64,000 bases of DNA from Planctomycetota bacterium (GTDB lineage: Bacteria; Planctomycetota; GCA-002687715; CAIWVZ01), in the NCBI GenBank assembly GCA_044222185.1, contig JBGANV010000003.1, forward strand, positions 256,001 to 320,000, written 5' to 3'. The notes under the pieces were generated by a model. That model had not been told where the DNA came from. It saw nothing but the letters and a program-made list of their open reading frames with translations, and made no database searches. Made by a program: the position numbers and the translations under genes. This document shows positions 978 through 43,634 of the stretch, in pieces. The first letter of the stretch is position 1. Every line of letters begins with the position of its first letter.

Positions 978-3900
978 TCAGGGAATCCGCACGCGAATGA
1001 GGGACGGTTCATGGGCGGGGACTTCGACCTGCGCGTCGGCCCACGTCGCGCTGCCATGGGTCACCACCACGCGCCAGGACCCCGGGATCGCGGGCAGCGT
1101 GAGCTTCGTTGGGCACTCCATGCCGGCGAAGCGGATGAGCGGCTGGTCGTGCCACACGACGCCGGCTGCGTCTTCGACCCGCATGCGGACCCCGGGGAAC
1201 CGCGCGCGCAGGATCGGATCGGTAGCGCTCAGGAGCGTTCCGTCGGCGTTGCTCCGATACTCGAACGCCAGCGCCATGGGCGTCGTCGCGAGGATCCGGA
1301 GCTCGACGCTCCGCGCGCCCACCGCGTCGACCGTGATCCGCGAGGGTGCCGAGACCCGGAACTCCGTTCGGCTGACCGCCCGCGCCATCACCCACCAGTC
1401 GCCCGGCTCCAGCCCGCGGACGGAGAACGCGCCGTCGGCCGCCACGGCGACCTCCGTCGACCGCCCCTCGACGGCTGCGCGACGGACGACGACCGACACC
1501 GTGCCTCCGGGGACCGCTCCGTCGGCATCGAGCACGTGGCCTGCGAGCGATCCACCGACTCCCAGCCTGACGGCCACGTCGATGATGGGGCGCGAGCCAT
1601 CGACGACGATCCCGTCTCGTGCCACGCGCATGGCGTGCGGCGCCCACACATGAACCGTCCACGTCCCGACGGGCGTGCCTCGGAACTCCACGATGCCAGG
1701 CCCGGTCACCTGCCCGACGCGGCCGCCCCCCGACCCGGAGACGAGTTCCGCTTCCAGCCCCGCGAGAACGGGATCGCCCGTCGTTCCATCCGTGACCGTC
1801 ACCCTCACCGTCGCGGTCGGCGTTGCCGTCGCACCAATCGTGAGCACGATCGGCGCCGAACTCGGAGAGATCTCGAACGTCTTCCACGCTGGCCCGACCC
1901 CATCCGCTTGCGCGCAGAGCTCGATGGGACCCGGCGCGAGGTCCTCGATGCGAAACTGCCCACGGGCATCGCTGGCCAGGTATCGCAGTCCCATCCGACG
2001 GCCCGTCTCAGCTTCGGCCTTCGGCGAACCGCGCGCCATCACGACGGCTCCCGCCACGGGCTCCCCCGCCGCCGTGACCACGGACCCGGAGACGACGAGC
2101 CCCCGCGACAGCACGATCCGCAAAGGAGCGCCCGCGGCGCCCATGGGAACGTCCGTCGTCACGAACCCGCTGGCACTCGCCCGCACGGTGTCGGCCGCGA
2201 CGGCCTCGCCGCTCGTCGTTCCGCTGATGGATGCGGATGCGCGGTGCCCGCGATCGACCACGATGGTGAATCCGCCGGCCGCGTCCGTCAGCACCGTGGA
2301 GGGCCACGACTGCGCTTCGATGCGAGCGCCGGCGATCGGCGTCCCCGCCTCGTCGACGACCGCTCCGCTGACGCGATCACGCCCCATGGTGAAGACGAGA
2401 TCGGGGGCCTCGATGTCGCGTCCCGTCGCTGGAACGAGGAGTTTCGGGTGGCCGGGCAGGGACGTATCGCAGCCGCAGGCCGTCAGGCGAATGCTGGTCG
2501 ACGAGGCGCGCGGAACCGCGACGGTCGCGTGTTCGTAACGACCCTCCGCATCCGTGACCGCGGCACCGCCGAGGGGCCCGCCTTCGCCGGGAACGATCCG
2601 GCCCTCGTCACCATCCGCCTCGTCGTCGGGGGCGGCGAACACGCGGACGCCGGCCACCGGTCGGCCGTCGGGATCGACCACGCGACCCGTGATCCGCAGG
2701 CAGGCGCCCAATGCGATCGACACCTGCTGCACCTCCCGCTCGCCATCCGGCATCACCACGGGACACGAACGCGGCGCGTGCCCTGGCGCGATGGCGGCGA
2801 CGCCTCCGATGACGCGTCGGCCATTGACGAACCGTGAGCTGAGCGCGGGCAGCTTGATGCCCGCCACCTCGACCGGGATCCGATCGAACCGGTACCGGCC
2901 GTCGGCGTCGGCCCGGGTCCGCTGTGCGATCCGACTGCCGAACGCGTTGCGGACTCCGACGCCGCGGATGTACCGGGTCCCTTGCGGGCCGTCCGCCATC
3001 CAGAAAACCACGTCGGCGCCCCCGATCGGTCGACCCGACGTGCGATCGAAGACGACGCCCTCCACGACGCCTCCCCGCGCGAGCACCACGTCGAGCGTCA
3101 CGACGCCCGAAGAATGCGCGGGCTGGGGCCGGAGCGGCCGGGCTTGTGGCGCGAACCCCGGCGCATCGAACGCGACGTGCGCGTCGCCGGTCGGCTCGAG
3201 GGCCGTCGCCGGCACTCCGTCCACCGAGTAGGTCCCGTCCGCGGCCGTCGTCGTGCGCGACGTGACCGGGGTCCATCCCACCATCGTCCGGTAGGTGACG
3301 GTCGCGTCGGCGATCGGGTGCCCGCCCAGGTCGGAAACGACCCCGCGGATCCGGAATGCGGCCTGGAGCACGATCGTCGTCTCGATCCCATCGGCGCGCA
3401 CGAGATCCTTGATCCCCACGGCGAACCCATCGGCCGTCGCGAGCACGTCGAACGCTCGCGCCGCAGACGGCGCCGTGATGACGAATCGCCCCGAGGCGTC
3501 CGTCACGGCGGTCGCGAGAGGAGGCGACGGCTCGCGCTCGGCGGCGCCGATCGCCACGGGAGGCCGCCGACCGGAAGCGAAGACCGAGAGCCGCGCGCCG
3601 GAGATCGGTGCGCCCCTGAGGTCGACCACTCGACCGAGGATCGCGCCCCGCTCGTCGAGCGTCGCCGCGGTCACGGAGACCGGGCGCACGACCGGTCCGT
3701 CCGGCGCCGCCGGAGTCGTCGCGGGGCTCGGCGGCATCGCCGCGTCATCGGCCGCGTCATCGGCCGCGTCGGCCGTCCGTCCGACGAGCGGCGACGGCGT
3801 CGGCGAAGCCATGAGGCCCCACCAGGCCGTGAGTCCGAGCAAGACGACCCCGAACAGCACGAGGAGCTTCTTCATCGTCACGACTCCGGCCGTTCCGGCC

Positions 3901-4511
3901 GCGGCCAGCGAAATCCCTCCGTCGACGGACGCCGACGTGAGCACGTCGACGGCGCGACCCGTGGTCCGTCCGAGCGCTGGAAGGAACGCGAGCGCCAGCG
4001 GCACGCGCTCGGATCCGCCGATGCGATCGAGCGTGGCGCCGAGCCGCCGTCGCGCTTCGTGCACGCGCCGTCCGATCGTGCCCACCTTGCAGTCGAGGAC
4101 CCGCGCCACGGCGGCGTGATCCAGGCCCTCGTCGTACACGAGGTGGAGCAGCGCCCGATCGGCCGGTGACGACCGAGCGAGGCCGGCCTCGATCCACTCG
4201 CGGAGGTCCCTCAGCCTCGACGGGTCGGGGCCGGCGACGTCGAGGAACCCGTCCTGGTCCCCCAGGCTCAGGGCGGCGGGCCGCCGCGAGTCATCGACGA
4301 TCCTGTGCCAGGCGATCCTCAGCGCGTAGGCGACGGGGCGATCCGGCGCCATGCCGTCCCGGCATTTCTCCAACAGAGCGAGCACGACCGCGGACGTCAG
4401 ATCCTCGACACGATCCGGGCCGACGAGCCGCCGCACGAACCGCCGCACGGGATCGCGCACGGCCAAGAGGACCTGATCCACGCGCGGGTCTGCTGTCGGG
4501 GTTCGCGCCAT
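978..4511 (-). CDS. ECF sigma factor fused via a TM helix to repeated carboxypeptidase-regulatory-like (beta-sandwich) domains
   Basis: N-terminal sigma region 2 (VEDLTSAVVL...YALRIAWHRIVDDSRR) and region 4 (EGLDHAAVARVLDCKVGTIGRRVHEARRRL); TM helix; about 7 repeats of 'G-V-D--G-P--GA-V...TDA-G-F'. Confidence 0.85.
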   Translation of the reverse strand: MARTPTADPRVDQVLLAVRDPVRRFVRRLVGPDRVEDLTSAVVLALLEKCRDGMAPDRPVAYALRIAWHRIVDDSRRPAALSLGDQDGFLDVAGPDPSRLRDLREWIEAGLARSSPADRALLHLVYDEGLDHAAVARVLDCKVGTIGRRVHEARRRLGATLDRIGGSERVPLALAFLPALGRTTGRAVDVLTSASVDGGISLAAAGTAGVVTMKKLLVLFGVVLLGLTAWWGLMASPTPSPLVGRTADAADDAADDAAMPPSPATTPAAPDGPVVRPVSVTAATLDERGAILGRVVDLRGAPISGARLSVFASGRRPPVAIGAAEREPSPPLATAVTDASGRFVITAPSAARAFDVLATADGFAVGIKDLVRADGIETTIVLQAAFRIRGVVSDLGGHPIADATVTYRTMVGWTPVTSRTTTAADGTYSVDGVPATALEPTGDAHVAFDAPGFAPQARPLRPQPAHSSGVVTLDVVLARGGVVEGVVFDRTSGRPIGGADVVFWMADGPQGTRYIRGVGVRNAFGSRIAQRTRADADGRYRFDRIPVEVAGIKLPALSSRFVNGRRVIGGVAAIAPGHAPRSCPVVMPDGEREVQQVSIALGACLRITGRVVDPDGRPVAGVRVFAAPDDEADGDEGRIVPGEGGPLGGAAVTDAEGRYEHATVAVPRASSTSIRLTACGCDTSLPGHPKLLVPATGRDIEAPDLVFTMGRDRVSGAVVDEAGTPIAGARIEAQSWPSTVLTDAAGGFTIVVDRGHRASASISGTTSGEAVAADTVRASASGFVTTDVPMGAAGAPLRIVLSRGLVVSGSVVTAAGEPVAGAVVMARGSPKAEAETGRRMGLRYLASDARGQFRIEDLAPGPIELCAQADGVGPAWKTFEISPSSAPIVLTIGATATPTATVRVTVTDGTTGDPVLAGLEAELVSGSGGGRVGQVTGPGIVEFRGTPVGTWTVHVWAPHAMRVARDGIVVDGSRPIIDVAVRLGVGGSLAGHVLDADGAVPGGTVSVVVRRAAVEGRSTEVAVAADGAFSVRGLEPGDWWVMARAVSRTEFRVSAPSRITVDAVGARSVELRILATTPMALAFEYRSNADGTLLSATDPILRARFPGVRMRVEDAAGVVWHDQPLIRFAGMECPTKLTLPAIPGSWRVVVTHGSATWADAQVEVPAHEPSLIRVRIP

Positions 4512-7651: not shown

Positions 7652-8572
7652 TCAGGGCAGGAACGTGATCACGACGGCTCGGCGACCCCAACGGTTCTGA
7701 GCGAGCGGAGGTGCACCCGCGCGGGTCGCCGCGCCGAGCGTCAACATGCCATGGGCGACGCAGCGTATACGCTTCTTGTTCACGCCACCGCGGACCAGGT
7801 AGTCCCGCACCGCCACGGCGCGAGCCTCCGAAATGTCCCAGCCGTCGTCGGGGCTCGCGCCTTCCTCGAACGCGTACCCGTCGATGCGGACCTCGAACGA
7901 CGCCGCGGAGATCCCGCGCGCCAGTTCGTCGAGGAACGACGCGTGTCCGCTCGTCAGCGCCGTCGAATCCTGGTCGAAGATCAGCGGAGCGGGCAGCGTA
8001 GACGAACCCTTCTTCGCCATGGCGTCGACGATCACCTTCCGCATGGTGTCGCGGTTCGAATCGAGGATGCGCCCGTCAGGCTCGGCGAGCGTCTTCGTGT
8101 TGATCGAGGCTCCAGGGCGATACACGACGCGCCCCGCGTGAAACTGCACCGGCACGTGCGCGCCCTTCATGCTCCCGAGCGACCCGATCGGAGAGATCCC
8201 CCGCTGGATGGACCCGAGGCCGTCCTCGAGGAGGATCCCCTGCTGCTTGGACGCGAAGGCCGTCAGCAGGATGAAGAAGCACATGAGATTCGTCATGGTG
8301 TCGGCGAACGACAGCAGCCACAGCGGAGCGCTCGGGCCGAAGTCGGGGTGGTGCTCGGCGTGCTTCTTGTGGTGGCCGTGGCCGCCGTGTCCCCCACCGT
8401 GCTCGCCACCATGCCCACCGTCGCCTCCATGTCCGCCGCCGTGACCGTCACCATGCCCGCCACCGCCGTGTTTCTCGGCGCCGTCCTTGTGCCCGGCATC
8501 GTGCTTGGCGGCGTGCCCGTCCTTCGGCTTGGCCGGCGCATGCTCCTTGGGGCTTGCGGGCGCAGCGCTCAC
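7652..8572 (-). CDS. motB: Flagellar stator protein MotB paralog 2 with His/Gly-rich N-terminus
   Basis: WLLSFADTMTNLMCFFILL stator TM motif with conserved Asp; C-terminal OmpA-like domain (ISEARAVAVRDYL). Confidence 0.85.
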   Translation of the reverse strand: MSAAPASPKEHAPAKPKDGHAAKHDAGHKDGAEKHGGGGHGDGHGGGHGGDGGHGGEHGGGHGGHGHHKKHAEHHPDFGPSAPLWLLSFADTMTNLMCFFILLTAFASKQQGILLEDGLGSIQRGISPIGSLGSMKGAHVPVQFHAGRVVYRPGASINTKTLAEPDGRILDSNRDTMRKVIVDAMAKKGSSTLPAPLIFDQDSTALTSGHASFLDELARGISAASFEVRIDGYAFEEGASPDDGWDISEARAVAVRDYLVRGGVNKKRIRCVAHGMLTLGAATRAGAPPLAQNRWGRRAVVITFLP

Positions 8573-9291
8573 TGGACCTGCCTGACGATCACGTCCACGC
8601 GACGGTTCTTGGCGCGACCCGCCGCCGTTTCATTCGACGCGATCGGATACGCAGAGCCCAGCGCCGTGAATCCGATCCTCGCCGGCTCGATGTCCGACGC
8701 CTTCGAGAGGAGCACGGAGACCTTCTGCGCCAGCGCCCGCGTGAGAGCGACGTCGTTGTCGTAGCTCGAGAACTTCCACGTGCGATCATCCGTGTGGGCC
8801 TCCACGATGAACTCGCACGGTTCGCCTCGGAAGAAGTTCCCGATCTCCTCGAGCACGATGGAGGCATCGGGACCGAGTTCGTCGCTACCGGGAACGAAGA
8901 GGGCGGGCTCGGCCAAGCTGACGTGCAAGCCGTCGGCGAGACGCTTCAGGTCGGGCTTCACGGAGTACTCGGCCGATTGGACCTTCTTCGACATCGCTTC
9001 GTCGAACTCCTTCTCGCGACGCTGCGAGCGCTCTTCGGGTCCAACGATGTCACGGGTCCCGTCCTGACCTGGGCGCCTCGCGACGAGCGCCGGGACTTCG
9101 CGGGTCGACTCGGATCCGAAGATGCCCGGATTGCCGGGCCGGAGGTTGCGCCCTCCGTCCGCCGCCGAGCCGGAACTCGAGGATGAGTATGTCGCCATGA
9201 GAATGAAGAAGATGACCAGGTTCGCGATCATGTCGGCGAACGAGATCACCCACAGCGGACAGCCCGGCCCATCACCACCGCCACCGCACAT
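8569..9291 (-). CDS. motB: Flagellar stator protein MotB paralog 1
   Basis: WVISFADMIANLVIFFILM TM motif; OmpA-like domain (VEAHTDD...NRRVDV). Confidence 0.9.
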   Translation of the reverse strand: MCGGGGDGPGCPLWVISFADMIANLVIFFILMATYSSSSSGSAADGGRNLRPGNPGIFGSESTREVPALVARRPGQDGTRDIVGPEERSQRREKEFDEAMSKKVQSAEYSVKPDLKRLADGLHVSLAEPALFVPGSDELGPDASIVLEEIGNFFRGEPCEFIVEAHTDDRTWKFSSYDNDVALTRALAQKVSVLLSKASDIEPARIGFTALGSAYPIASNETAAGRAKNRRVDVIVRQVQ

Positions 9292-10158: not shown

Positions 10159-10187
10159 TCATCGACCGCTGGCTCGCCCGGAGCTGA
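10159..10187 (-). promoter_or_regulatory. Possible sigma28-like promoter of motA-motB-motB
   Basis: Minus strand TCAG-N17-GTCGATGA in the 150-bp gap upstream of motA. Confidence 0.35.
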
Positions 10188-23357: not shown

Positions 23358-24779
23358 TCAGACGGTGCGTCGGAGGAACAGTCGTTCGTTCCCCTCGAGG
23401 CCCAGGCTCTTCATCTTGTGATAGAGCGTGCTGCGGTTGATGCCGAGCATCTTCGCAGCTCGCGTGATGTTGAAGCGCGTCTCGCCGAGAACGAGGCGGA
23501 TCAGGTCCTCTTCCACGGAGCGGAGCGTTCGATCGCGCAACGGCAGGACGTCGGCCGACGTCTCCGAATCGGGTGTGGACTCGATCGCCGTCGGCTCGGA
23601 ATGCTCGGAGAACGCCAGGTGGCGAGGCTCGATCTCGGCTCCGTCGCAGACGATGACGGCGTATTCACAGACGTTGCGGAGCTCACGGACGTTGCCAGGC
23701 CATTCGTGCTCGAGCAGAGTCCGAAGCGAGGTCTCGCTGAAACCGGAGACGGGCTTGCGCAGGTCCTGTGCGAAGCGGTCGAGGAAGTGTGCGGCGAGGA
23801 CCGGAATGTCCGACTTGCGCTCGCGGAGCGCCGGCACGCGGATCGGCATGACGTTCAGCCGGAAGAAGAGGTCCTTGCGGAAGGAACCGGTGCGAACGTC
23901 GTCCCACAGCTCCCGGTTGGTCGCCGCGATGATGCGCACGTCCACTCGGGTGTCCTTCGTTCCACCGACGCGCTTGAACGAGTTCTCCTGAAGGAACCGG
24001 AGGAGTTTCGCCTGGAGCGACGGCGCCATCTCCCCGATCTCGTCGAGGAAGACCGTGCCGCCATCGGCGGCCTCCAGGAGTCCCACCTTGCCATTCGGGC
24101 TCGCACCCGTGAACGCGCCGCGCTCGTAGCCGAACAGCTCGGCCTCGAGGATGTTCTCGTTGAGCGCCGCGCAGTTGATCGCCATGAACGGGCGCGCGCT
24201 GCGGCGACCGTCGAAATGGATCGCGCGGGCGACGAGTTCCTTGCCCGTGCCGCTCTCGCCCTGGATCAGCACCGTGGTGCTGGGGGTCGACGCGACTCGT
24301 GCGATGTGATCGCGCAGGCGAGCGACGGCGTCGCTGTCACCGATGATGGGCGGCCGCGAAAGATCGGTCGGCGTGGGCCCCTTCCGGTGGGATGCGCGCC
24401 GCGTCGCCGCCTGATCCTCGAGCGCCGGCGTGAGGACGTTCAAGAGGCGCTCGGCGAAGAGCGGCTTCTCGAGGACGTCGAGCGCGCCCTCGCGCACGGC
24501 TTCGACGACGACGCGAACGTCCGGATACAGCGCGGTCATCAGGATCACGGGGGCATCTGGAAGCCGGTGCAGCTCGCGGACGAGGTCGATGCCGAGCCCG
24601 TCCGACAAGCGGTGCTCGACGAGCACGGCGTCCGGCATGGTCTCGGCGATCGCACGGCGAGCCGCGGCGAGATCCGCAGCGCCACGGACCTGCACCGCCT
24701 CGATCCCCAGCGCATGCGTCAGTTCGCTGACGAGGCCGGGATCCGAATCGACGACCAACAATTGAAAACGCACCGTCAT
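23358..24779 (-). CDS. Sigma54-dependent activator with atypical receiver domain (FleQ/FlrA-like)
   Basis: [17 protein letters not shown]; the receiver has VDSD and LVEHRL (Glu at the phospho-Asp position). Confidence 0.9.
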   Translation of the reverse strand: MTVRFQLLVVDSDPGLVSELTHALGIEAVQVRGAADLAAARRAIAETMPDAVLVEHRLSDGLGIDLVRELHRLPDAPVILMTALYPDVRVVVEAVREGALDVLEKPLFAERLLNVLTPALEDQAATRRASHRKGPTPTDLSRPPIIGDSDAVARLRDHIARVASTPSTTVLIQGESGTGKELVARAIHFDGRRSARPFMAINCAALNENILEAELFGYERGAFTGASPNGKVGLLEAADGGTVFLDEIGEMAPSLQAKLLRFLQENSFKRVGGTKDTRVDVRIIAATNRELWDDVRTGSFRKDLFFRLNVMPIRVPALRERKSDIPVLAAHFLDRFAQDLRKPVSGFSETSLRTLLEHEWPGNVRELRNVCEYAVIVCDGAEIEPRHLAFSEHSEPTAIESTPDSETSADVLPLRDRTLRSVEEDLIRLVLGETRFNITRAAKMLGINRSTLYHKMKSLGLEGNERLFLRRTV

Positions 24780-24842
24780 GTCGTGTTCTCGAACAAACTG
24801 GGAGAGTCGCCTCTCCTGGGCCAAAGACCGACGTCGATGCAT

Positions 24843-24869
24843 CTATCGGCGTTTGCGACACCCCTCTGA
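24843..24869 (-). promoter_or_regulatory. Sigma28-like promoter upstream of the FleQ-like gene
   Basis: Minus strand TCAG-N15-GCCGATAG with canonical spacing. Confidence 0.55.
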
Positions 24870-24949: not shown

Positions 24950-24978
24950 TCAACAGTCCTGCGCGCGAGGGCCGAAAA
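24950..24978 (+). promoter_or_regulatory. Sigma28-like promoter of fliD
   Basis: TCAA-N17-GCCGAAAA about 40 bp upstream of the fliD ATG; fliD is commonly sigma28-dependent. Confidence 0.45.
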
Positions 24979-35849: not shown

Positions 35850-37040
35850 TCATCGATCGAGGTAATAGACGAGATTGCAGAAGACGAGGTCCGGATACGG
35901 ATTCTGGGACGTCGCCATCAGGGTCCCCGCGCCGCCAGCGAACAACACGCCGATCGGCGCGCCAATCGTCTGAGCCGTGGCATCACTGGGGTTGAAGAGC
36001 ATCCCGAAGACCATGGGGCCGATCTGGCTTTGCCCGGAAATCCACGGCGTCCCGACAGCGGCAAACCCCGGAGGCCCGAAATTGCCGCCCTCGGACGTGA
36101 CTTCGAACGGCAGGCCGGCCACTGAGATCGGGCTGTAGAGGTAGTTCGGGTCCGCACCCGTGTCGACCGTTTCGACGGACGAGGCGCTGAGGTTGCCCCC
36201 GGTCGCCACGACGACGCTGATGCCGAGCGTGGTGTTCAAGAAGTTGTTCACCCAGAGTGCCCGTTCCTGGCCGGCGGGCGAACCGACGGACGGGCCCACG
36301 ACGAATGCCACTCCCCCACTCTGCCTGAGGAACTGGAGGAAGCGAGCGGCTTCCAGCGGTGAAGGCGGAACCGTGAAGCGGCAATCCAGGATCACGTCGT
36401 ACGACGTCAGCGCGGCTGGAAGCACGTCGTCCGCGACCACGACGTGATTGCCCAGCAGGGTGAGCGACCCGGCGAGGGCCGTCGCCTGCGCGCTCGGATT
36501 TCCGATGGCCGACGTGCTCGCGGTCTGGCGCAGCAGCAGAACGTGCTTCCCCGTGGCCAGGAACGGCGAGACCTTCAGATGAACGCTGTTCGACATGCGG
36601 ATGTCGGCCACCTGGGGATCCGCGACGGCGCACTGCACGGCGAACTCCAAGCCAGCGAGGCCGGGGTCCATCGGCACGGAAACCACGTGCTCGAGCATGC
36701 TGCCGCCGCCCAGGAGCGTCAGGTCGCGCAGGACGAACCAATCCGCCCCCAGGTCGGTGAAGTAAGGCCCGATCCAGGACGGCCCGGTTTCGGACGACGC
36801 CAGGATCCACACGCCCGCCTGCGGCACCGTGTGGAGGACGAGGTGAAGGTCGTCGCCGAGTTTCAGGTTGTTGCTGACGAGCTTGTGCGGCGCCGCGGGG
36901 ACGACGCTGTTGCCGCCACCCGGTCCGGCGCCGGGCACGCCAGCGAGTTGGAGGATGACGAACATCAAGAACAGGGCTGCTGCGGCGGCGATCAGGACCT
37001 GAGTCGAGCTGGCCTTCCCGCGCGAGACGTCGGTTGACAT
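35850..37040 (-). CDS. Secreted/membrane-anchored hypothetical protein
   Basis: N-terminal hydrophobic helix; beta domain ending VPMDPGLAGLEFAVQ...MSNSVHLKV; C-terminal alpha/beta domain (YDVILD...QSGGVAF) resembling class I GATase/ThuA-like folds. Confidence 0.7.
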   Translation of the reverse strand: MSTDVSRGKASSTQVLIAAAAALFLMFVILQLAGVPGAGPGGGNSVVPAAPHKLVSNNLKLGDDLHLVLHTVPQAGVWILASSETGPSWIGPYFTDLGADWFVLRDLTLLGGGSMLEHVVSVPMDPGLAGLEFAVQCAVADPQVADIRMSNSVHLKVSPFLATGKHVLLLRQTASTSAIGNPSAQATALAGSLTLLGNHVVVADDVLPAALTSYDVILDCRFTVPPSPLEAARFLQFLRQSGGVAFVVGPSVGSPAGQERALWVNNFLNTTLGISVVVATGGNLSASSVETVDTGADPNYLYSPISVAGLPFEVTSEGGNFGPPGFAAVGTPWISGQSQIGPMVFGMLFNPSDATAQTIGAPIGVLFAGGAGTLMATSQNPYPDLVFCNLVYYLDR

Positions 37041-37142
37041 GGTCGGGCGCAGACCGGTTGTTGTGGTCCGCTGAGCCTCCTTTTCGACCGTCGGCGTGTG
37101 CGGGCTTCATCCCCCGCAGGAAGAAGACGCTTCGAGGGGCTC

Positions 37143-37691
37143 TCAGGCGTGGCTGCGATCGGCAGCGTCGATGGGCTGCGGCCCGGCACCGGAACCGCGC
37201 CACGTGCGCACGTCCTCGACGATCTCCTGGGAGCCCGCGCACAGGATCTGCGTTCCGAAGCGCATGTTCGGGCCGTGGCCGCACTGCCCCAGGCAGTGCA
37301 CATCGGTGAACTGGAGCGCCGGGTTCGCGGTCGCGAGTGCAGCCCGCAGGCGTTGGTTGAGCGCCGCGGCGCCGGTCAGCCGGCACGTGACTCCAAGACA
37401 GAAGCGGAACTCGTCGGCCGGCGTGGCCGACACCAGTTGCGCGTGGAACCGCCTGGTGTCGTCCAGTTGAGCCGGCGTGACGCCGAGGTCGGCCGCGACT
37501 GCGCAGTGGACCTCGGGGTCCTCGATGCCGCATCGCCAGAGCGCGTGGGCGGCAAGGATCAACGCGCCGTCAAGCGGTCTGCCTGACGAGTCGGTCCAGT
37601 CGCGCTTGATGTCATCAATGGACACGACGCCCTCCGGAGTTCCGGCGACGACCCGCTCCGTGATCATCCGAAAACCGGCGCGAGTATACAC
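37143..37691 (-). CDS. NuoE-like thioredoxin-fold [2Fe-2S] protein (orphan)
   Basis: CLGVTC ... CLGQCGHGP motif (Cx4C...Cx3C); degenerate NuoE N-terminal helices; start uncertain. Confidence 0.7.
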   Translation of the reverse strand: MYTRAGFRMITERVVAGTPEGVVSIDDIKRDWTDSSGRPLDGALILAAHALWRCGIEDPEVHCAVAADLGVTPAQLDDTRRFHAQLVSATPADEFRFCLGVTCRLTGAAALNQRLRAALATANPALQFTDVHCLGQCGHGPNMRFGTQILCAGSQEIVEDVRTWRGSGAGPQPIDAADRSHA

Positions 37692-37740
37692 CTATCGAAA
37701 GTCGCCGACCAGAGAGCCCGGGCCCCCAGGTCGGCGTCGA

Positions 37741-38250
37741 TCACTTCGGGAAGAGCGAGTCCAGCCGGTCTTTCGCCGTCTGGTCGTAGTCGGCCGCGAG
37801 TTCGACCGCCGGGCGCGTTCCCTTGCGTGTGCGGATCGACTCGAACAGCTCGCTGAGCTTCCGCGCCGCCTCGTTCGTGTAGAGGCGGACCATCCCGATC
37901 GTCGTCTGGTCATCGAAAATCACGGTCAGGATCGTTCGCTCGCTGATCAGGGTCAACTGGATGTTGTCCCGCTGCCCCTGATGGAACACGACCGAGAATT
38001 CGTCCTCGCCGAGGATCCGCGCCATCTCGCGGGTCGCAGCGAACGACCCGGCAATCAGGGCTGCGATCGTATCGATGTCGAAGTCCCGAACGACTCCGGT
38101 CTTCGCCACCATGTGGCCGTCCTTGTCGATGAGCAACGCGCACTTCGAACCAGAGAGGTTCGTGAGCTCCTTGAGGACGGCGTCGATCTTCGCCATCTCC
38201 TCGCGATAGAAGACCAGCCGTTCTTCCCGCAGTCGGTCGGTGTCATTCAT
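37741..38250 (-). CDS. mglB: MglB-type roadblock/LC7 GTPase-activating protein
   Basis: LIDKDGH, IAALIAGSFAAT, FHQGQRDN and IFDDQTTIGMVRL, matching the Myxococcus MglB pattern. Confidence 0.9.
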   Translation of the reverse strand: MNDTDRLREERLVFYREEMAKIDAVLKELTNLSGSKCALLIDKDGHMVAKTGVVRDFDIDTIAALIAGSFAATREMARILGEDEFSVVFHQGQRDNIQLTLISERTILTVIFDDQTTIGMVRLYTNEAARKLSELFESIRTRKGTRPAVELAADYDQTAKDRLDSLFPK

Positions 38251-38359
38251 GACGGTTCACTTTCGTCTATTTCCGGGCCGCGCCTTTCGGACGCGTTCTC
38301 CGCCCACGGCAATCCGCTGCGCGAGGACCCGGTTCCCAACTCACTCGTGGTTGATGGGT

Positions 38360-39397
38360 TCATTTCCGGAAAAAGAAGAGGACGGCAACGGCCACCGCAG
38401 CGCCGAGCAGCACGGCGCCGCCCCAAACGAGAGCCGGCGATACCGACCGCCTCGGGCGCGACGACGAAATGATCACGCGCTGCCGCGACGTGGACTGGCT
38501 TGCAGGCGAAGCCGTCCGCTTGGCTCCCGGACGCGTGGCAGGGCGCGGCACTGCGGGCACCGGCATGCCGCCCGTCGCCCCTGCCGAAGCCGGATCGGGG
38601 TGCGTTTGGGCACGAGGCATTTCGACGGTCGCAACGCTCCGCGCGCTGGCGACCGGCCCGGTTGCGGCGGTTCCGGCCGTGCCGTGGCCATGCGCGGGAG
38701 CCGGAGCCGTGGGCGCGGCATGCACTCGCGGAGTCGGCGGAGCCATGGCTGGCCGGGGCGCACCGGCCGTCGCAGGTGCGGAAACCGCCGCTTTCGCCGC
38801 CGGCTTCTCGTCTGCGAGCATCTTCACCTTCTGGAGCACGAGCATCGAAAGGCCCTTGAACGTCTCGACGACGCCCGTGCCTTTCGCCGCGACCGCCTCG
38901 AATGTCGGGACGTTGAAGCGGTTGAGCGTTCGGTTCATCTCGTCGAGCGTGAGCGCGTTCGGCAGGTCGCGCTTGTTGAACTGGATGACGTGCGGCATCT
39001 CGCACAGGGACCGGCCTTGTTCGCGCAGGCAGTCCTCCAGGTTCTGGAGCGACTCGACGTTCTCGGCCATCTTCTCCGGGTTGCTGTCGGCGACGAACAC
39101 GACGCCGTCGGCGCCCCGCAGGACGAGCTTGCGAGTGGAGTTGTAATAGACCTGCCCAGGAACCGTGTAGAGCTGGAACTTCGTCTTCATCCCGCCGACG
39201 GTGCCGAGGTGGAGGGGCATGAAATCGAAGAACAGCGTCCGGTCCGACTCGGTCGCGATCGACGAAAGAACGCCACGACTCTCGTCCGGCGCCTTCTGGT
39301 GAACGACCTCGAGATTGGTCGTCTTTCCGGAAAGGCCAGGTCCGAAATACACGACCTTGCAGTTGATCTCTCGAAGGGCCAGGTTGAACTGCACCAC
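38360..39397 (-). CDS. mglA: MglA small GTPase with C-terminal Pro/Ala linker and TM tail anchor
   Basis: REINCKVVYFGPGLSGKTT, DRTLFFDF, TVPGQ, NKRD; C-terminal LVWGGAVLLGAAVAVAVLFFFRK. Confidence 0.92.
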   Translation of the reverse strand: MVQFNLALREINCKVVYFGPGLSGKTTNLEVVHQKAPDESRGVLSSIATESDRTLFFDFMPLHLGTVGGMKTKFQLYTVPGQVYYNSTRKLVLRGADGVVFVADSNPEKMAENVESLQNLEDCLREQGRSLCEMPHVIQFNKRDLPNALTLDEMNRTLNRFNVPTFEAVAAKGTGVVETFKGLSMLVLQKVKMLADEKPAAKAAVSAPATAGAPRPAMAPPTPRVHAAPTAPAPAHGHGTAGTAATGPVASARSVATVEMPRAQTHPDPASAGATGGMPVPAVPRPATRPGAKRTASPASQSTSRQRVIISSSRPRRSVSPALVWGGAVLLGAAVAVAVLFFFRK

Positions 39398-39412
39398 GAC
39401 AACTACCCCCCG

Positions 39413-39766
39413 TCAGACGGTGATTTGACCGAGCTTCCGCAACGTCTTCGCGGCGCTCTCGATGTCCAGGAGACCTTGATCGAGGTCGATGTGACGATCG
39501 GTCACGACGACCAGGTACGCGTTTCCGAGATCGGTGACGATCACTTTGCCGCGGGTCGCCACCATGACGAGCCGTGACATTCCGCCGTCGCCGCATTGGC
39601 GTACGACGCTTTGAGCTCCCGCGAGCAATGATGAGACGAGGGCTGCCGCCGTGTCAGGGTCGAGTGAACCTCGAAGCCGTGACGCGACGACGATCCCGTC
39701 GGGTGTCGCCACCAGGCTGCCGGAGATTCCCGGCAGCGAATTCAATTCGTCGAGGACCTCGATCAT
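39413..39766 (-). CDS. Roadblock/LC7 domain protein
   Basis: LNSLPGISGSLVATPDGIVVAS...AAAL roadblock pattern. Confidence 0.85.
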   Translation of the reverse strand: MIEVLDELNSLPGISGSLVATPDGIVVASRLRGSLDPDTAAALVSSLLAGAQSVVRQCGDGGMSRLVMVATRGKVIVTDLGNAYLVVVTDRHIDLDQGLLDIESAAKTLRKLGQITV

Positions 39767-39775
39767 GAACGTTTC

Positions 39776-40885
39776 CTATCGGGAGCGATCCACCGCAGCC
39801 GCCACGTCTCGGGCAGCCTCGCGGACCGCATCCAAGTGACTCGATGTGATGGCGACGACGAGCACGAGGGCGCTCCAGCCACCGACGACGACGATCGTCT
39901 TGCGCCCCGAGACGATCTCCGTCTCCTGGAAGGCGCCGATTCCGATCCGCCGCGCGCACACGGAGACCGTGCGCCGCATCATCCCTGCGAGGGCGAGGAA
40001 TGGGTCGGGCTCGGATGAATCCGCCTCGCGAACCTGCCCCTGCATCGCGACGAGTTCGTGCGCCGGATGAACGAAGGCCACGCGCTCGACGCCGCCCAAT
40101 TCGGAGAGGCCTCGCAGCGCGCGCGACAGCTTGGGCTTCAGCCCGGGCGCCGCGCCGAGACGGCGGCGATCGCGCGGACGCCATGCGTCGAACGGACGGT
40201 CCCGGTCTTCGACGGTCTGGATGAGCACGTCGATCGTCGAGGTCTCCAGGGGTAGTCCCGTGAGGCAGTCCTTCAGACATTCGCCGTCCGGGTCGTTCGC
40301 CCGGAGATCGAGCAGCGCGTAGACGTGGTGGAGCGCGCTCGCGACGGCGCCGACGTAGTAGTAGGCCTCCGCGAGCGCGAGGTGAGCGTCAGAGTCGTTG
40401 GGCTTTCGTTCCACGACGAGGAGCCATGACCGCACCGCGGCAAGGCCGTCCGCAGCGACATGGTCCCGGGTGAAGCGTCGCCACAGGATCCGCGCGCGCG
40501 CCGCGACCGCGTCCGGCGAGTCCGGATTCGCCGCGCAGAAGCGGTCGGCAACCCCCAGGGCCAGGTCGAGTTCCTCTGCCTGACCGTAGTGATCGATGAG
40601 CGCCGAGAAGTCGCCGCCGTCGCCGCGGCCGTCGACGCGCCCGACGAGCTCGAGTTCGCGTCCCCGTCCGACCTGCCGCCAGATCAGACGCAGCTGATCT
40701 GCCATCTCTCGCGAGCGCGGGAACCTCTCGACCCCGGCCCGGGCGGCGTCCATGGCGCGGTCCCAGCGGCCCTGTCGCACCAGGGCGCGGCACTCTGCCA
40801 GGATGGCCCGAGGACCGTCGGTCGGCGGCGCCCGTCGGGACGCCTCCACCCGCGGTTTGGTTGTGCGTTTGAGAAAGCCCAGCAT
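39776..40885 (-). CDS. TPR protein with C-terminal roadblock-like domain
   Basis: TPR motifs (DAHLALAEAYYYVG); C-terminal LSELGGVERVAFV...GIGAFQETEI roadblock-like fold; ATG at 40885. Confidence 0.7.
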   Translation of the reverse strand: MLGFLKRTTKPRVEASRRAPPTDGPRAILAECRALVRQGRWDRAMDAARAGVERFPRSREMADQLRLIWRQVGRGRELELVGRVDGRGDGGDFSALIDHYGQAEELDLALGVADRFCAANPDSPDAVAARARILWRRFTRDHVAADGLAAVRSWLLVVERKPNDSDAHLALAEAYYYVGAVASALHHVYALLDLRANDPDGECLKDCLTGLPLETSTIDVLIQTVEDRDRPFDAWRPRDRRRLGAAPGLKPKLSRALRGLSELGGVERVAFVHPAHELVAMQGQVREADSSEPDPFLALAGMMRRTVSVCARRIGIGAFQETEIVSGRKTIVVVGGWSALVLVVAITSSHLDAVREAARDVAAAVDRSR

Positions 40886-40960
40886 CACTCCACAGCCTGA
40901 CGCGTGTTCGAGCCCGGTGCCGGCACGCAAAAACGCGGGCGCGGCGGAGGACCTTCCCGT

Positions 40961-40989
40961 TTATCGGTAGGACAGAGGCAGTTCGTTGA
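40961..40989 (-). promoter_or_regulatory. Sigma28-like promoter of the mgl operon
   Basis: Minus strand TCAA-N17-ACCGATAA, same geometry as the fliD motif. Confidence 0.45.
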
Positions 40990-41451
40990 CGGCAGCCCGC
41001 GCGATCCACGGAACCCGGTCCGCCCGCGTAGAAATGGGTCGCGCGGCTGCGCGACCTCACGCCTCCGCCGACGTGATCGCACGCAAAGGCGCGCCGGCGC
41101 GCCTGCTCGGAGCGTCCGGGACCCGCCGACGCTGCTGATAGTTGCAGTTCCCGGCTGGAACGGCCGGCCCCGGACGCGCCCCGAGCTTCTCGATCCGTCG
41201 TCGAGAACCGCGGAGGAAACCCGGCGAAGCATCTTCCTGCGCGCGTCCGACGATCAGGCCGGCCCTCGCGACGATGCGTCACCTCCCCGTTGCCGCCTCT
41301 CCGCGGCGACCAGTCTCTTGCCCAGCCACCGGTCGACGGATAGACTCGCCGCGTCGTAGGGGATCCCGCGCGGACCCCGTGGCGCGAGTGGGCGATCAGG
41401 TGGCTCTGAGCCCCTCGCATCAAACAGACAACGTCGGCCCGACCGGCCGGC

Positions 41452-41560
41452 ATGACAATGGAAAGCGGATGGGGTTGTGTGTCTCAATACACGTAAAACT
41501 CCCTCCTTCCTCTCTACGCCTGAAATCTAGCTCCTCGTCTGCTTTCCACTTTCAAACGAG
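41452..41560 (+). ncRNA. Candidate structured small RNA or leader element
   Basis: Low-GC island; TGGAAAGCGGA (41459-41469) pairs with TCTGCTTTCCA (41538-41548); internal C/U-rich tract; directly precedes a strong terminator. Confidence 0.4.
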
Positions 41561-41598
41561 ACAGTTCCGATCAGATGCTGATCGGAACTGTTTTTTTT
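41561..41598 (+). terminator. Strong Rho-independent terminator
   Basis: Perfect 14-bp stem ACAGTTCCGATCAG-ATG-CTGATCGGAACTGT running into a T8 tract (41591-41598). Confidence 0.9.
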
Positions 41599-41738
41599 GA
41601 CGGAGCACGTTGCCGCAGCGCCCGTTTGCTTGAGCAAGCGTTCGCCGCTGATAACATCGCGGCCCGTCAAGCATTAACTGAGCGAAGCCAACGACTTACG
41701 TTCAGCATCCTTCACGCCGAGTGCGCGGAGAGCCATCG

Positions 41739-43634
41739 ATGAAGGCGTGTGCCCATTTCCTGCCGTTCGTTCTGATCGCGACATTCTGCGCAGCTCCGCT
41801 CGCCGCGCAGGAACACCCCAAGCCCAGCGCGGAGGTCGACGCGACGGTGCCCGTCAAGCCGGCCACGCCGGTGCCGCAGCCGCCCACGCAGCCGAACGTC
41901 CTGCAGCCGCAGGGCGTCGAGAAGCCCGCCGATCCGAGCAAGGTGCGCGCGACCTTCGAGCTGCAGGGCGCCACGGTCCCGATCACCGAAGGCGAGTTCT
42001 ACGACGCGTACCGGCGCCTCGAGAAGTTCGACACCAAGCAGGGCATGAAGATCACCGTCGAGCGCGCGTACGAGCACCTGCTCTCCTACGCAGAGGCCAA
42101 GGCCCTCGGACTCGAGGCGACGGCAGAAGAGGTCGCGCTCTACGACCCGCTCGCCTCCAATCCCGAGCTCGCCAAGCAGACGCGTGAGCGCTGGGAGAAG
42201 GATGGCATCACGCAGGCGATGTACGACGCCTTCCAGCGGGAATCCCGCACGATCCAGAAGGCGAAGGACCTCTTCGCGAACTCGGTCCGCGTCTCGTCGA
42301 GCGAGATCTTCGACATGTACCGCCGAGACCACTACACCTACCGACTCGAGTACGTCGAGTTCCTCGCGTCCGCCTACGCGGCCGAACTCCGGCAGGCGAA
42401 ACCGACGGATGCGGACCTGAAGAAGTTCTGGGACGAGAACACGATGGTGCAGAACAAGCACCGGATGCAGGCGACGGTCACGGCGGACTTCGTCTACTTC
42501 GACCCGGCGATGTCATCGGGGAACGCCGTCGAGACACGAACGGTCCCCCGCGAAGAGGCCATCGCCTACTACCAGAAGCACAAGGCGCGGCTCGACTCGC
42601 AGATCCCGTCCGAGCGCCGCAAAGAGCTCTACCCCACCGGCCAGGCGGACCTGACGTCGCTCGTCACGCCGTTCTCCATACTCCGCCCGATCATCGAGCG
42701 GGAGATCCTGCTGTCGGGTCGGGTCGCGACGGCATTCCAGGAGGCCAAGGCGGGTGCAACCGATCTGAAGGCGCTCGCCGCGAAGCACGGTCTCGGTTTC
42801 GTACACATCGAAAAGGCGAACCGGGACGTGATGGCCCAGCAGCACCTGCGGTTCGGCGCGCAGGCGTTCCCGGTGCTTTCGAACCTGAACCCGAACACGC
42901 TGTCGGACGAAGTGAAGATGGAGGGGCAGCTCCACTTCTTCTATCGCCTCCTCGACAAGGAGCAGAGCCGCCTCCCAGACTTCGCCAGCGTCCGCGAGCA
43001 GATCCTCGGCGACTACATCGAGACGACCTCGCTCCAGCGCGCGCAGAACGCCGCCCAGGAGTTCCGCAACTCGATCGACAAGAAGGTGGATCAAGAAATC
43101 GCGGCCGAGCAGGAAACCCAACTCGGCAAGGCCGAAGCGGATGCCAACGCCGAGATCAAGCGTGACAACGTCACGGACGGTCGCCAGATCGAGGGAATCA
43201 AGGCGCGGTATCGACTCCAGGCCGAAGCCAAGATCCGCCAGATGAAGGACGGGATGGCTCCGAAGTACTTCGCTCAAGCGGTCACGGACGCAAAGCTGAA
43301 GCTTCTCGATACGGGCCCGTTCGAAGTCGGCATCCCGCGCGGTGACCGCGGCGCGAACCCCGAGGATGCACAGGCTCGCATCGACTTCCTGAAGACGGCC
43401 TACCAGGTCCGCACGATGGAGGTCGGTCAGATCAGCACGGTCCTGAGCGACGCCGTGACGAAGTCCCACTTCGTCGTTCGCGTGGTCGAGAAGGCCGAGC
43501 CCGACTTCACGAAGATGACCGACAGCGAGATCCTGTCGTTCCGCTCGTCGATCGAGCGCAACAAGTCGTTCCAGGCCGTGTACCGCTGGACCTACTACGA
43601 GATCTCGCGGCGCTGCAACCTCGTCGTCAAGTGA
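41739..43634 (+). CDS. Periplasmic chaperone, SurA/PpiD-like
   Basis: Signal peptide; LLSYAEAKALGL, VSSSEIFDMY, TDADLKKFW and VGQISTVL...HFVVRV resemble PpiD/parvulin-like proteins. Confidence 0.7.
   Translation: MKACAHFLPFVLIATFCAAPLAAQEHPKPSAEVDATVPVKPATPVPQPPTQPNVLQPQGVEKPADPSKVRATFELQGATVPITEGEFYDAYRRLEKFDTKQGMKITVERAYEHLLSYAEAKALGLEATAEEVALYDPLASNPELAKQTRERWEKDGITQAMYDAFQRESRTIQKAKDLFANSVRVSSSEIFDMYRRDHYTYRLEYVEFLASAYAAELRQAKPTDADLKKFWDENTMVQNKHRMQATVTADFVYFDPAMSSGNAVETRTVPREEAIAYYQKHKARLDSQIPSERRKELYPTGQADLTSLVTPFSILRPIIEREILLSGRVATAFQEAKAGATDLKALAAKHGLGFVHIEKANRDVMAQQHLRFGAQAFPVLSNLNPNTLSDEVKMEGQLHFFYRLLDKEQSRLPDFASVREQILGDYIETTSLQRAQNAAQEFRNSIDKKVDQEIAAEQETQLGKAEADANAEIKRDNVTDGRQIEGIKARYRLQAEAKIRQMKDGMAPKYFAQAVTDAKLKLLDTGPFEVGIPRGDRGANPEDAQARIDFLKTAYQVRTMEVGQISTVLSDAVTKSHFVVRVVEKAEPDFTKMTDSEILSFRSSIERNKSFQAVYRWTYYEISRRCNLVVK

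Follow-up and report, generated by a model that had tools for sequence, protein, structure and literature searches.

We analysed a 64-kb stretch of a Planctomycetota genome (hereafter the window; contig C7:256001-320000 of genome G000), in which a minus-strand operon of four genes encodes a putative MglA polarity module behind a site resembling the promoters of late flagellar genes. The host genome measures 7.08 Mb with 67% G+C and is 93.8% complete; other G numbers designate the genomes compared with it, and L numbers designate loci. The first 27 kb of the window are occupied by flagellar genes (fliL, motA with two motB-like genes, fliJ-I-H-G-F-E, flgC-B, two sigma-54 activators, and fliD-S-T), and genes of mixed functions lie beyond them. 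The operon begins with a protein consisting of tetratricopeptide repeats (TPR) and a C-terminal roadblock domain (TPR-RB; 39776-40885; 369 amino acids from the ATG at 40885; Pfam TPR_14, 3.8e-09), followed by a small roadblock protein (RB2; 39413-39766; 117 amino acids; Pfam Robl_LC7, 4.2e-16), the MglA orthologue (38360-39397; 345 amino acids; Pfam Arf/Ras) and the MglB orthologue, the presumed GTPase-activating protein (GAP; 37741-38250; 169 amino acids; Pfam Robl_LC7, 1.6e-13). The open reading frame (ORF) of TPR-RB extends to a TTG at 40930 (39776-40930, 384 amino acids), and its homologues align from the ATG at 40885. Gaps of 9 and 15 nt separate the first three genes, and mglB starts 109 nt downstream of mglA. 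The minus-strand ORFs and their Pfam families bear out the gene arrangement given in the initial annotation of this DNA.

Among the Planctomycetota loci, the arrangement (TPR-RB)-RB2-mglA-mglB is conserved and is often followed by a ferredoxin-like gene and a gene for a protein designated p396, whereas the loci of other phyla display the classic mglB-mglA order. The position of RB2 directly upstream of mglA is conserved across the Planctomycetota loci, and the adjacency of mglA and mglB is conserved across loci. Two RNA runs of one metatranscriptomic study contain contigs that are 100% identical to the operon over 37796-38061, 38152-38302, and 39631-39810, the first falling within mglB, the second at its 5' end, and the third spanning the junction of TPR-RB and RB2. 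These contigs are blind to transcript starts, strand, and level, DNA carry-over is possible and the uncovered parts carry no meaning, so that they give a weak hint of expression and co-transcription of the operon.

The MglA orthologue aligns with the solved MglA of Myxococcus xanthus over residues 4-192 (E 1.7e-71). Group 1 MglA proteins are diagnosed by a P-loop, an Arg-Thr pair in switch I, TVPGQ replacing DxxGQ, and NKxD; the alignment shows GPGLSGKTT (P-loop), DRTLFFDF (switch I Arg-Thr), YTVPGQ, and NKRD. The protein is not a single-domain cytosolic GTPase of about 195 residues. Its 345 residues comprise a GTPase domain (residues 1-195), a Pro/Ala-rich tail of about 110 residues, and, at the C-terminus, a hydrophobic helix of the transmembrane type. 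The linker and helix are present on MglA in 26 of the 27 Planctomycetota-type loci and in 0 of the 11 loci of other phyla, where MglA is 188-196 amino acids long or has a different long C-terminus. Planctomycete MglA carries a conserved C-terminal helix that is predicted to serve as a membrane anchor.

The MglB orthologue is similar over its full length to the solved M. xanthus MglB (residues 11-167, E 5.1e-31). Among solved proteins, RB2 has no close relative: the best matches are unnamed Robl_LC7 proteins (E 1.9e-05), and MglB reaches only 0.17. Pfam recognizes two roadblock domains genome-wide, both at this locus (RB2 and MglB), and fails to detect a third at the C-terminus of TPR-RB. That domain had been proposed in the initial annotation, which counted three roadblock domains, and it was recovered by comparing an RB2 alignment with a TPR-RB alignment in hhalign (probability 92%, E 6.4e-07, 107 columns, residues 257-367). 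In an AlphaFold2 model of TPR-RB (16 homologues, mean predicted local distance difference test [pLDDT] score 86), about 10 TPR-like helices precede a domain at residues 249-367 composed of a helix, strands, a helix, three strands, and a helix. A Foldseek search with the whole model returned TPR proteins only. We accept the third roadblock domain because the profile comparison and the confidently modelled fold agree. The family evolves fast (19-36% identity): a single-sequence search found 1 relative and a profile search 36, all named "hypothetical" or "TPR repeat protein" and none annotated as Robl_LC7.

In complex prediction, RB2 docks on the C-terminal domain of TPR-RB by the face that roadblock dimers usually employ, which comprises helix 2 and strand 3. 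The heterodimer scored 0.80 against 0.01 for the best of 3 controls, at least 98% of the contacts agreed between runs, and the partner pLDDT was at least 85; the mark applied is passed by 116 of 157 solved pairs and by 2 of 215 mismatched pairs. The prediction supports a canonical roadblock heterodimer formed by RB2 and the TPR-RB C-terminus.

Upstream of the operon lies a predicted sigma-28-type promoter site (40961-40989, minus strand; TCAACGAACTGCCTCTGTCCTACCGATAA), an exact match to TCAAC-N17-CCGATAA. The -35 block TCAAC occupies 40985-40989 and the -10 block CCGATAA occupies 40961-40967, and 75 nt separate the end of the site from the downstream ATG at 40885. The spacer of 17 nt from TCAAC to CCGATAA stands at the long end of the 15-17 nt range of sigma-28 promoters, as it does at fliD, where a promoter-like site (24950-24978, plus strand; TCAACAGTCCTGCGCGCGAGGGCCGAAAA) reads TCAAC-N17-CCGAAAA. 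A further site upstream of motA (10159-10187, minus strand) reads TCAGC-N16-GTCGATGA. All three had been noticed in the initial annotation: the N16-ACCGATAA it placed before the operon is the same site as our TCAAC-N17-CCGATAA, its near-copy before fliD was found with CCGAAAA instead of CCGATAA, and the similar motif before motA was found as well. The TCAAC-N17 two-block motif has 2 matches in the window where 0.20 would be expected, a count reached in 2 of 100 shuffles; such an occurrence is by itself only mildly improbable, and the main support for the site comes from its conservation across species. As a side observation near fliD, a CCGATAG box preceded by TTTCAGA-N15 (24844-24850, minus strand) lies immediately next to the annotated start codon (ATG) of ORF 23358-24842, which encodes a sigma-54 activator and is divergent from fliD; it might be a sigma-28-type promoter if the true start of that ORF lies further in.

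All 17 genomes of the order with usable sequence (G000, G002-G005, G007-G010, G012-G014, G016, G018-G020, and G022) carry a coding-strand CCGATA box ahead of the orthologue of the operon's first gene. The box is also present in 11 more distant Planctomycetota loci (L035-L040, L042, L043, and L047-L049), which brings the number of sites to 28, and 16 loci are without it (L032-L034, L045, L050-L052, L058, L148-L150, L152, L154, L155, L157, and L158). An automated count returned the box in 18 of 34 loci with a callable first gene, compared with 0.045 expected per locus; this background derives from 53 boxes in 528,106 nt of the same loci, or 0.045 per 450-nt window. The non-coding DNA of G000 (1.13 Mb, both strands counted) contains the hexamer 223 times. 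At 10 box-positive loci the automated caller failed, reporting no RB2, no first gene, or a wrong ORF (as at L040), and these were read by eye. The distance between box and start codon ranges from 22 to about 135 nt, and the flanking sequence is unalignable. When the 28 sites are aligned on the box, T and A are enriched at -22 to -18 relative to it in a GC-rich background (T at -22 in 15 of 28, A at -18 in 16 of 28). Near-perfect sigma-28 sites occur in L035 and L037 (CTCAAC-N16-GCCGATAAG) and in L036 (CTCAAT-N16-GCCGATAAG). A strict regular expression, TCAA...CGA[TAC]A[AGT], gave 0 matches upstream of the operon in 18 relatives; read directly, the sequences keep the -10 element while the -35 element varies.

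Every box-positive genome tested has a FliA/WhiG gene, and 5 of 5 tested genomes without sigma-28 (G030, G038, G040, G047, and G050) are without the box, which is what sigma-28 dependence predicts. Since the box recurs in 17 of 17 genomes of the order and in 11 further loci against an expectation of 0.045 per locus, a sigma-28-family promoter is very likely, and we hold with high confidence that the CCGATA box represents a real, if predicted, promoter of this type. The -35 variants TCAGG, TCAGC, and TCATG are common to the fliD and mgl promoters of relatives, and the mgl site is, as judged from its sequence, a variant of the late-flagellar sigma-28 promoter family. Because this fliD-like architecture is conserved in relatives, co-expression of the operon with sigma-28-dependent motility genes is plausible.

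The same box also precedes pilT. Three or four PilT genes score above the curated cut-off in each of G000, G013, G041, G043, and G044, and the best one of G000 (C8:78552-79640) carries CCGATAG about 115 nt upstream. Of 20 genomes of the order, 14 show an exact CCGATA in the 230 nt upstream of the pilT orthologue and 3 more show CCGAAAG; the pilT box is present as well in genus g5, which is without the mgl operon. In G041 and G043, where flagellar markers were not found, pilT is preceded by CTCAAC-N16-GCCGAAAA and the mgl operon by CTCAAC-N16-GCCGATAA. The box shared with the pilT orthologue points to co-regulation of the two by promoter type. In M. xanthus, MglA acts on type IV pili. By promoter type, the planctomycete operon appears to be tied to the pilus retraction motor at least as tightly as to the flagellar genes.

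Two FliA/WhiG-family genes of G000 score above the NCBIfam cut-off, one adjoining flhA (C7:394594-395259) and the other standing alone (C1:1905541-1906203). At least one sigma-28 gene is present in all 23 genomes of the order, and both are present in most. In a maximum-likelihood tree of 40 sigma-28 homologues, the flhA-adjacent genes form one clade (99/97) and the standalone genes another (100/99; clade II, with G000_C1, G013, G009_C8, G006_C17, G014_C44, G007, G039_C68, G026_C118, G042_C224, G041_C124, and G043_C19). The genomes G013, G041, G043, G042, and G039, whose sigma-28 belongs to the standalone clade, are all box-positive, and by these sequence comparisons the clade seems to track the mgl box. 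Upstream of the standalone gene, a predicted riboswitch aptamer for cyclic di-GMP (c-di-GMP), of the c-di-GMP-I or c-di-GMP-I-GGC family (RF01051/RF03167), scored above the gathering score at 8 of 8 loci searched in the order. In G000, it is a c-di-GMP-I-GGC aptamer at about C1:1906509-1906599 (L004:2469-2559; minus strand) with 67.4 bits against a gathering score of 59. A search with the FlgM Pfam family had no match in this 93.8%-complete genome. Autoregulation of the standalone gene through a CCGATA box was considered and rejected, as the box occurs at 3 of 21 loci and in varying places.

Taken together, we favour the reading that the operon is a planctomycete MglA polarity module, transcribed from a sigma-28-family promoter at 40961-40989 and belonging to one regulon with pilT, and that it is probably read by the standalone sigma-28. 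On this last point, the standalone paralogue (sigma-28-II) is the somewhat better candidate for the main reader, and the flagellar FliA may read the promoter as well. In the proposed mechanism, the TPR scaffold that ends in a roadblock domain would pair with RB2, and the MglA GTPase would be tethered to the membrane by its long disordered linker and C-terminal helix, with MglB as its GAP. The operon would belong to a small motility and polarity regulon with pilT, the type IV pilus retraction ATPase, and would stand beside late flagellar genes in the flagellated members. The gene of the presumed reader lies behind the c-di-GMP-I riboswitch, through which the level of c-di-GMP would set expression. 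Membrane-anchored MglA-GTP would designate one pole for the work of pili, and perhaps of flagella, and MglB would remove it from the other; the TPR-RB/RB2 pair may act as a landmark, an exchange factor, or an effector adaptor. The whole circuit, in which a c-di-GMP riboswitch gates a dedicated non-flagellar sigma-28 that in turn drives the membrane-anchored MglA module and PilT and so sets the pole of the motile or daughter cell, can be put forward only tentatively.

Several observations weigh against this proposal. G044 and G045 are box-positive, yet each has a single sigma-28 that falls outside clade II, and G024 has a second sigma-28 yet no box. Outside the order, the aptamers found were not adjacent to the clade-II sigma gene. 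The -35 element of the mgl site is weak and variable across relatives, and sequence alone assigns no sigma factor because the -10 sub-classes overlap, CCGATAA preceding fliD in genus g5 and an exact CCGATA preceding flagellin in 2 of 27 upstream regions. The compared genomes include kin and are not independent, and for G041-G045 completeness is not given, so that the absence of flagellar genes there means "not found" only. As roadblock dimers have already been solved, the passing score of the RB2/TPR-RB heterodimer may reflect likeness to them. A genome scan (TCAAG with at least 4 of 5 positions, CCGAxAA with at least 5 of 6, intergenic, and oriented toward a gene within 300 nt) returned 17 matches at spacings of 15-17 nt compared with 7, 15, 10, 10, and 9 at five control spacings (mean 10.2). 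The genes downstream of the 17 matches include those for flagellin, flgN, the mgl operon, a PilZ protein, a CheY-like regulator, and an unknown protein of 97 amino acids near flgKL; other matches precede unrelated genes, such as yebC, argR, dsbD, and the methionine aminopeptidase gene. The scan barely exceeds the control spacings; the degenerate motif thus lies near background, and the sigma-28-type regulon is small.

In an alternative reading, the operon would share its driver, the flagellar FliA encoded next to flhA, with fliD, flagellin, and motA, and the role of MglA would be to position or switch the flagellum. The fliD site of G000 has the same TCAAC-N17 architecture as the mgl site, the two promoters draw on common -35 variants in relatives, and flagellin, FlgN, the PilZ protein, and the CheY-like regulator are among the matches of the genome scan. 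The operon lies 9-13 kb from fliD in G000, G003, and G009, which is a loose flagellar linkage and a further point against our proposal, and most box-positive genomes of the order are flagellated. Flagellin upstream regions of relatives are clearly sigma-28-like, with CT(C/A)AAG-N15-16-CC(G/T)A-N-AA. Their -10 element, however, is mostly CCGAGAA, CCGACAA, CCGAAAA, or CCTACAA. The fliD upstream regions read TCA-N-G-N15-CCGAAAA or CCGAAAT at 11 of 20 loci of the order and CCGATAA at 3 of 20, all in genus g5. The distribution of the genes speaks against this reading. G013 (94% complete) yielded none of FlhA, flagellin, FliD, and FliG; it nevertheless retains the operon and its box (CCGATAAGG), holds the best match to TPR-RB, and has the riboswitch-preceded standalone gene as its only sigma-28. 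In G041, G043, G044, and G045, FlhA and FliG were not found, yet the operon, the box, and sigma-28 are kept. Conversely, the operon occurs without the box in G035 and G029, whose flagellar genes are accompanied by one sigma-28 only, that beside flhA; the same pattern holds for G033, G024, and G032, of which G024 also has a second sigma-28; and the flagellated genomes G006, G011, G017, and G015 are without the operon. Co-inheritance of the operon with flagellar genes therefore fails in both directions, with operons lacking flagellar genes and flagella lacking the operon, and we regard flagellar FliA as an unlikely principal driver. The flagellar status of G021 is uncertain, because its only FliD match lies on a strikingly AT-rich contig (L174, G021:C46) that is unlike the rest of the order and possibly a contaminant.

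It is improbable that the CCGATA box instead serves another regulator as a conserved binding site or belongs to a leader RNA, the operon being transcribed through a housekeeping or other sigma factor: the weak -35 element, the small genome-wide enrichment of the two-block motif, and the lack of a conserved CCGATA before the standalone sigma gene would favour it, but the box fits the sigma-28 -10 consensus of other bacteria (GCCGATAA), the T/A enrichment lies at the right distance, near-perfect sites exist in L035, L036, and L037, the same two-block form precedes flagellin, fliD, and pilT, the box is absent where sigma-28 is absent, and its distance from the start codon is variable.

The preferred reading, a polarity module sharing its promoter type with pilT and probably served by the standalone sigma-28, agrees in part with the initial annotation, which had assigned the operon to the flagellar sigma-28 regulon. 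A conserved sigma-28-type promoter like that of fliD stands; a specifically flagellar tie is not supported, in view of G013, G041, G043, G044, and G045, of G035 and G029, of pilT, and of the second sigma-28. The initial annotation had held that a motif frequency at background level, or retention of the operon in non-flagellated relatives with unrelated expression, would speak against its view. The genome scan indeed came out near background, and the operon is retained in such relatives, but its expression there would not be unrelated, because the same promoter type persists. It had also suggested comparing the operon with flagellar and type IV pilus genes; co-inheritance with flagellar genes was not borne out, and PilT genes accompany the operon in G000, G013, G041, G043, and G044.

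Sites of related form were observed elsewhere in G000. A PilZ-domain protein (C1:975866-976285) with TCAAG-N17-TCGATAAG upstream and a single-domain response regulator (C7:179133-179597) with TCAAC-N16-CCGATAAAC upstream, nearly the mgl site, are candidate members of a sigma-28-type regulon. A paralogue of TPR-RB (C16:272207-273331, plus strand; 28% identity, E 1.1e-28) stands without an adjacent roadblock or GTPase gene and is preceded by TCAAG-N17-CCGATGA, which resembles the motA site. A protein of 1040 amino acids with DUF4388 (PATAN) and TPR domains (C1:855371-858879) has a CCGATAA box 34 nt upstream, and its gene is followed by an ORF with a weak match to MglA-like GTPases (E 2.7e-06).

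Downstream of mglB, a thioredoxin-like [2Fe-2S] ferredoxin-like gene (37143-37691, minus strand; PF01257, 5.2e-08) is kept in this position in the order, as judged by tblastn synteny. It is followed by the gene for p396 (35850-37040, minus strand), a protein of 396 amino acids without a Pfam family, which also comes after the ferredoxin-like gene in several relatives (L020-L022, L024). On the other side of the operon, positions 41440-41598 (plus strand) hold a candidate small RNA in which a conserved box, TTTCCACTTTC, leads into a 13-bp hairpin with a stretch of 8 T behind it. The hairpin and T-run form a plus-strand intrinsic terminator (41561-41598), preceded by a CU-rich stretch. In the window, the candidate points away from the mgl operon; in relatives of family f2, the TTTCCACTTTC box, the hairpin with compensatory changes, and the T-run lie directly upstream of the mgl operon and co-directional with it. 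The candidate is single-copy in the genome and is without an Rfam match, an Rfam search of 37000-42500 with E up to 1 having returned zero matches. No tRNA was found in the 64-kb window. A scan for consensus promoters and terminators returned nothing useful and missed the clear terminator at 41561-41598. Among the flagellar genes, two MotB-like genes (MotB_plug plus OmpA) stand in tandem after motA (7652-9291, minus strand). At 978-4511 (minus strand), a protein of 1177 amino acids combines N-terminal regions 2 and 4 of an extracytoplasmic function (ECF)-type sigma-70 factor with many CarboxypepD_reg repeats.

In the literature searched, we found no description of an Mgl system in planctomycetes, an MglA anchored in the membrane, a fusion of TPR to a roadblock domain, or a sigma-28 promoter on mgl, and likewise none of a riboswitch before a sigma-28 gene in Planctomycetota or of planctomycete swarmer sigma factors. 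To our knowledge, the control of polarity by MglA is understood almost only in Myxococcus, where it concerns gliding and pili. Planctomycetota are a phylum with budding, dimorphic cells, and the locus would add to it an Mgl switch that has its GTPase tethered to the membrane, includes a TPR-roadblock/roadblock pair, and shares a conserved sigma-28-type promoter with pilT. If the second sigma-28 is indeed the reader, a single promoter, a single riboswitch, and one small operon would offer handles for testing cell polarity in planctomycetes.

The module shares clear MglA and MglB orthologues with the MglA/MglB module of M. xanthus and Thermus thermophilus, and extra roadblock and TPR partners occur in both settings; in M. 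xanthus these are the roadblock paralogue MglC and the TPR effector SgmX, with RomR/RomX as further partners. It differs in the gene order TPR-RB, RB2, mglA, mglB instead of mglB-mglA, in the linker and C-terminal membrane helix of MglA, in the fusion of TPR to a roadblock domain, in the predicted sigma-28-type promoter, and in its flagellated planctomycete host. Compared with the class III flagellar promoters of sigma-28 (FliA/SigD/WhiG), the same two-block form T(C/A)AA(G/C)-N15-17-CCGAxAA precedes flagellin, fliD, flgN, and mgl, but the mgl and pilT sites hold an invariant CCGATA with a weak -35 element and persist where flagellar genes were undetected. Parts of Wuichet and Sogaard-Andersen 2014 (PMC4316618) describe a subset of "group 1 MglA coupled to two MglB" in which only one roadblock protein co-evolves as MglB. 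The planctomycete operon likewise has one MglA with more than one adjacent roadblock protein; the main text of that paper contains neither "Planctomycet-" nor TPR nor sigma-28, and "transmembrane" appears in it once, in another context.

The closest parallel to the proposed regulation lies in Actinomycetota, where passages of PMC12871210 describe a WhiG1/WhiG2 split with c-di-GMP control through the anti-sigma factor RsiG and with type IV pilus targets. As far as those passages go, the likeness is that one sigma-28 paralogue is tied to the flagellar cluster and the other is freed and, in the planctomycete order by prediction, linked to c-di-GMP and pilus genes. Should the second planctomycete sigma-28 prove to be the reader, two distant phyla would each have arrived at sigma-28 duplication with c-di-GMP control and pilus targets. 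The proposed circuit from second messenger to sigma factor to polarity, if true, would be convergent with the actinobacterial WhiG2-RsiG system but would use an RNA sensor: in this other phylum, c-di-GMP would act through a riboswitch in the leader of the sigma gene rather than through RsiG, and the target set, compared with that described in the same passages, would include the MglA polarity operon.

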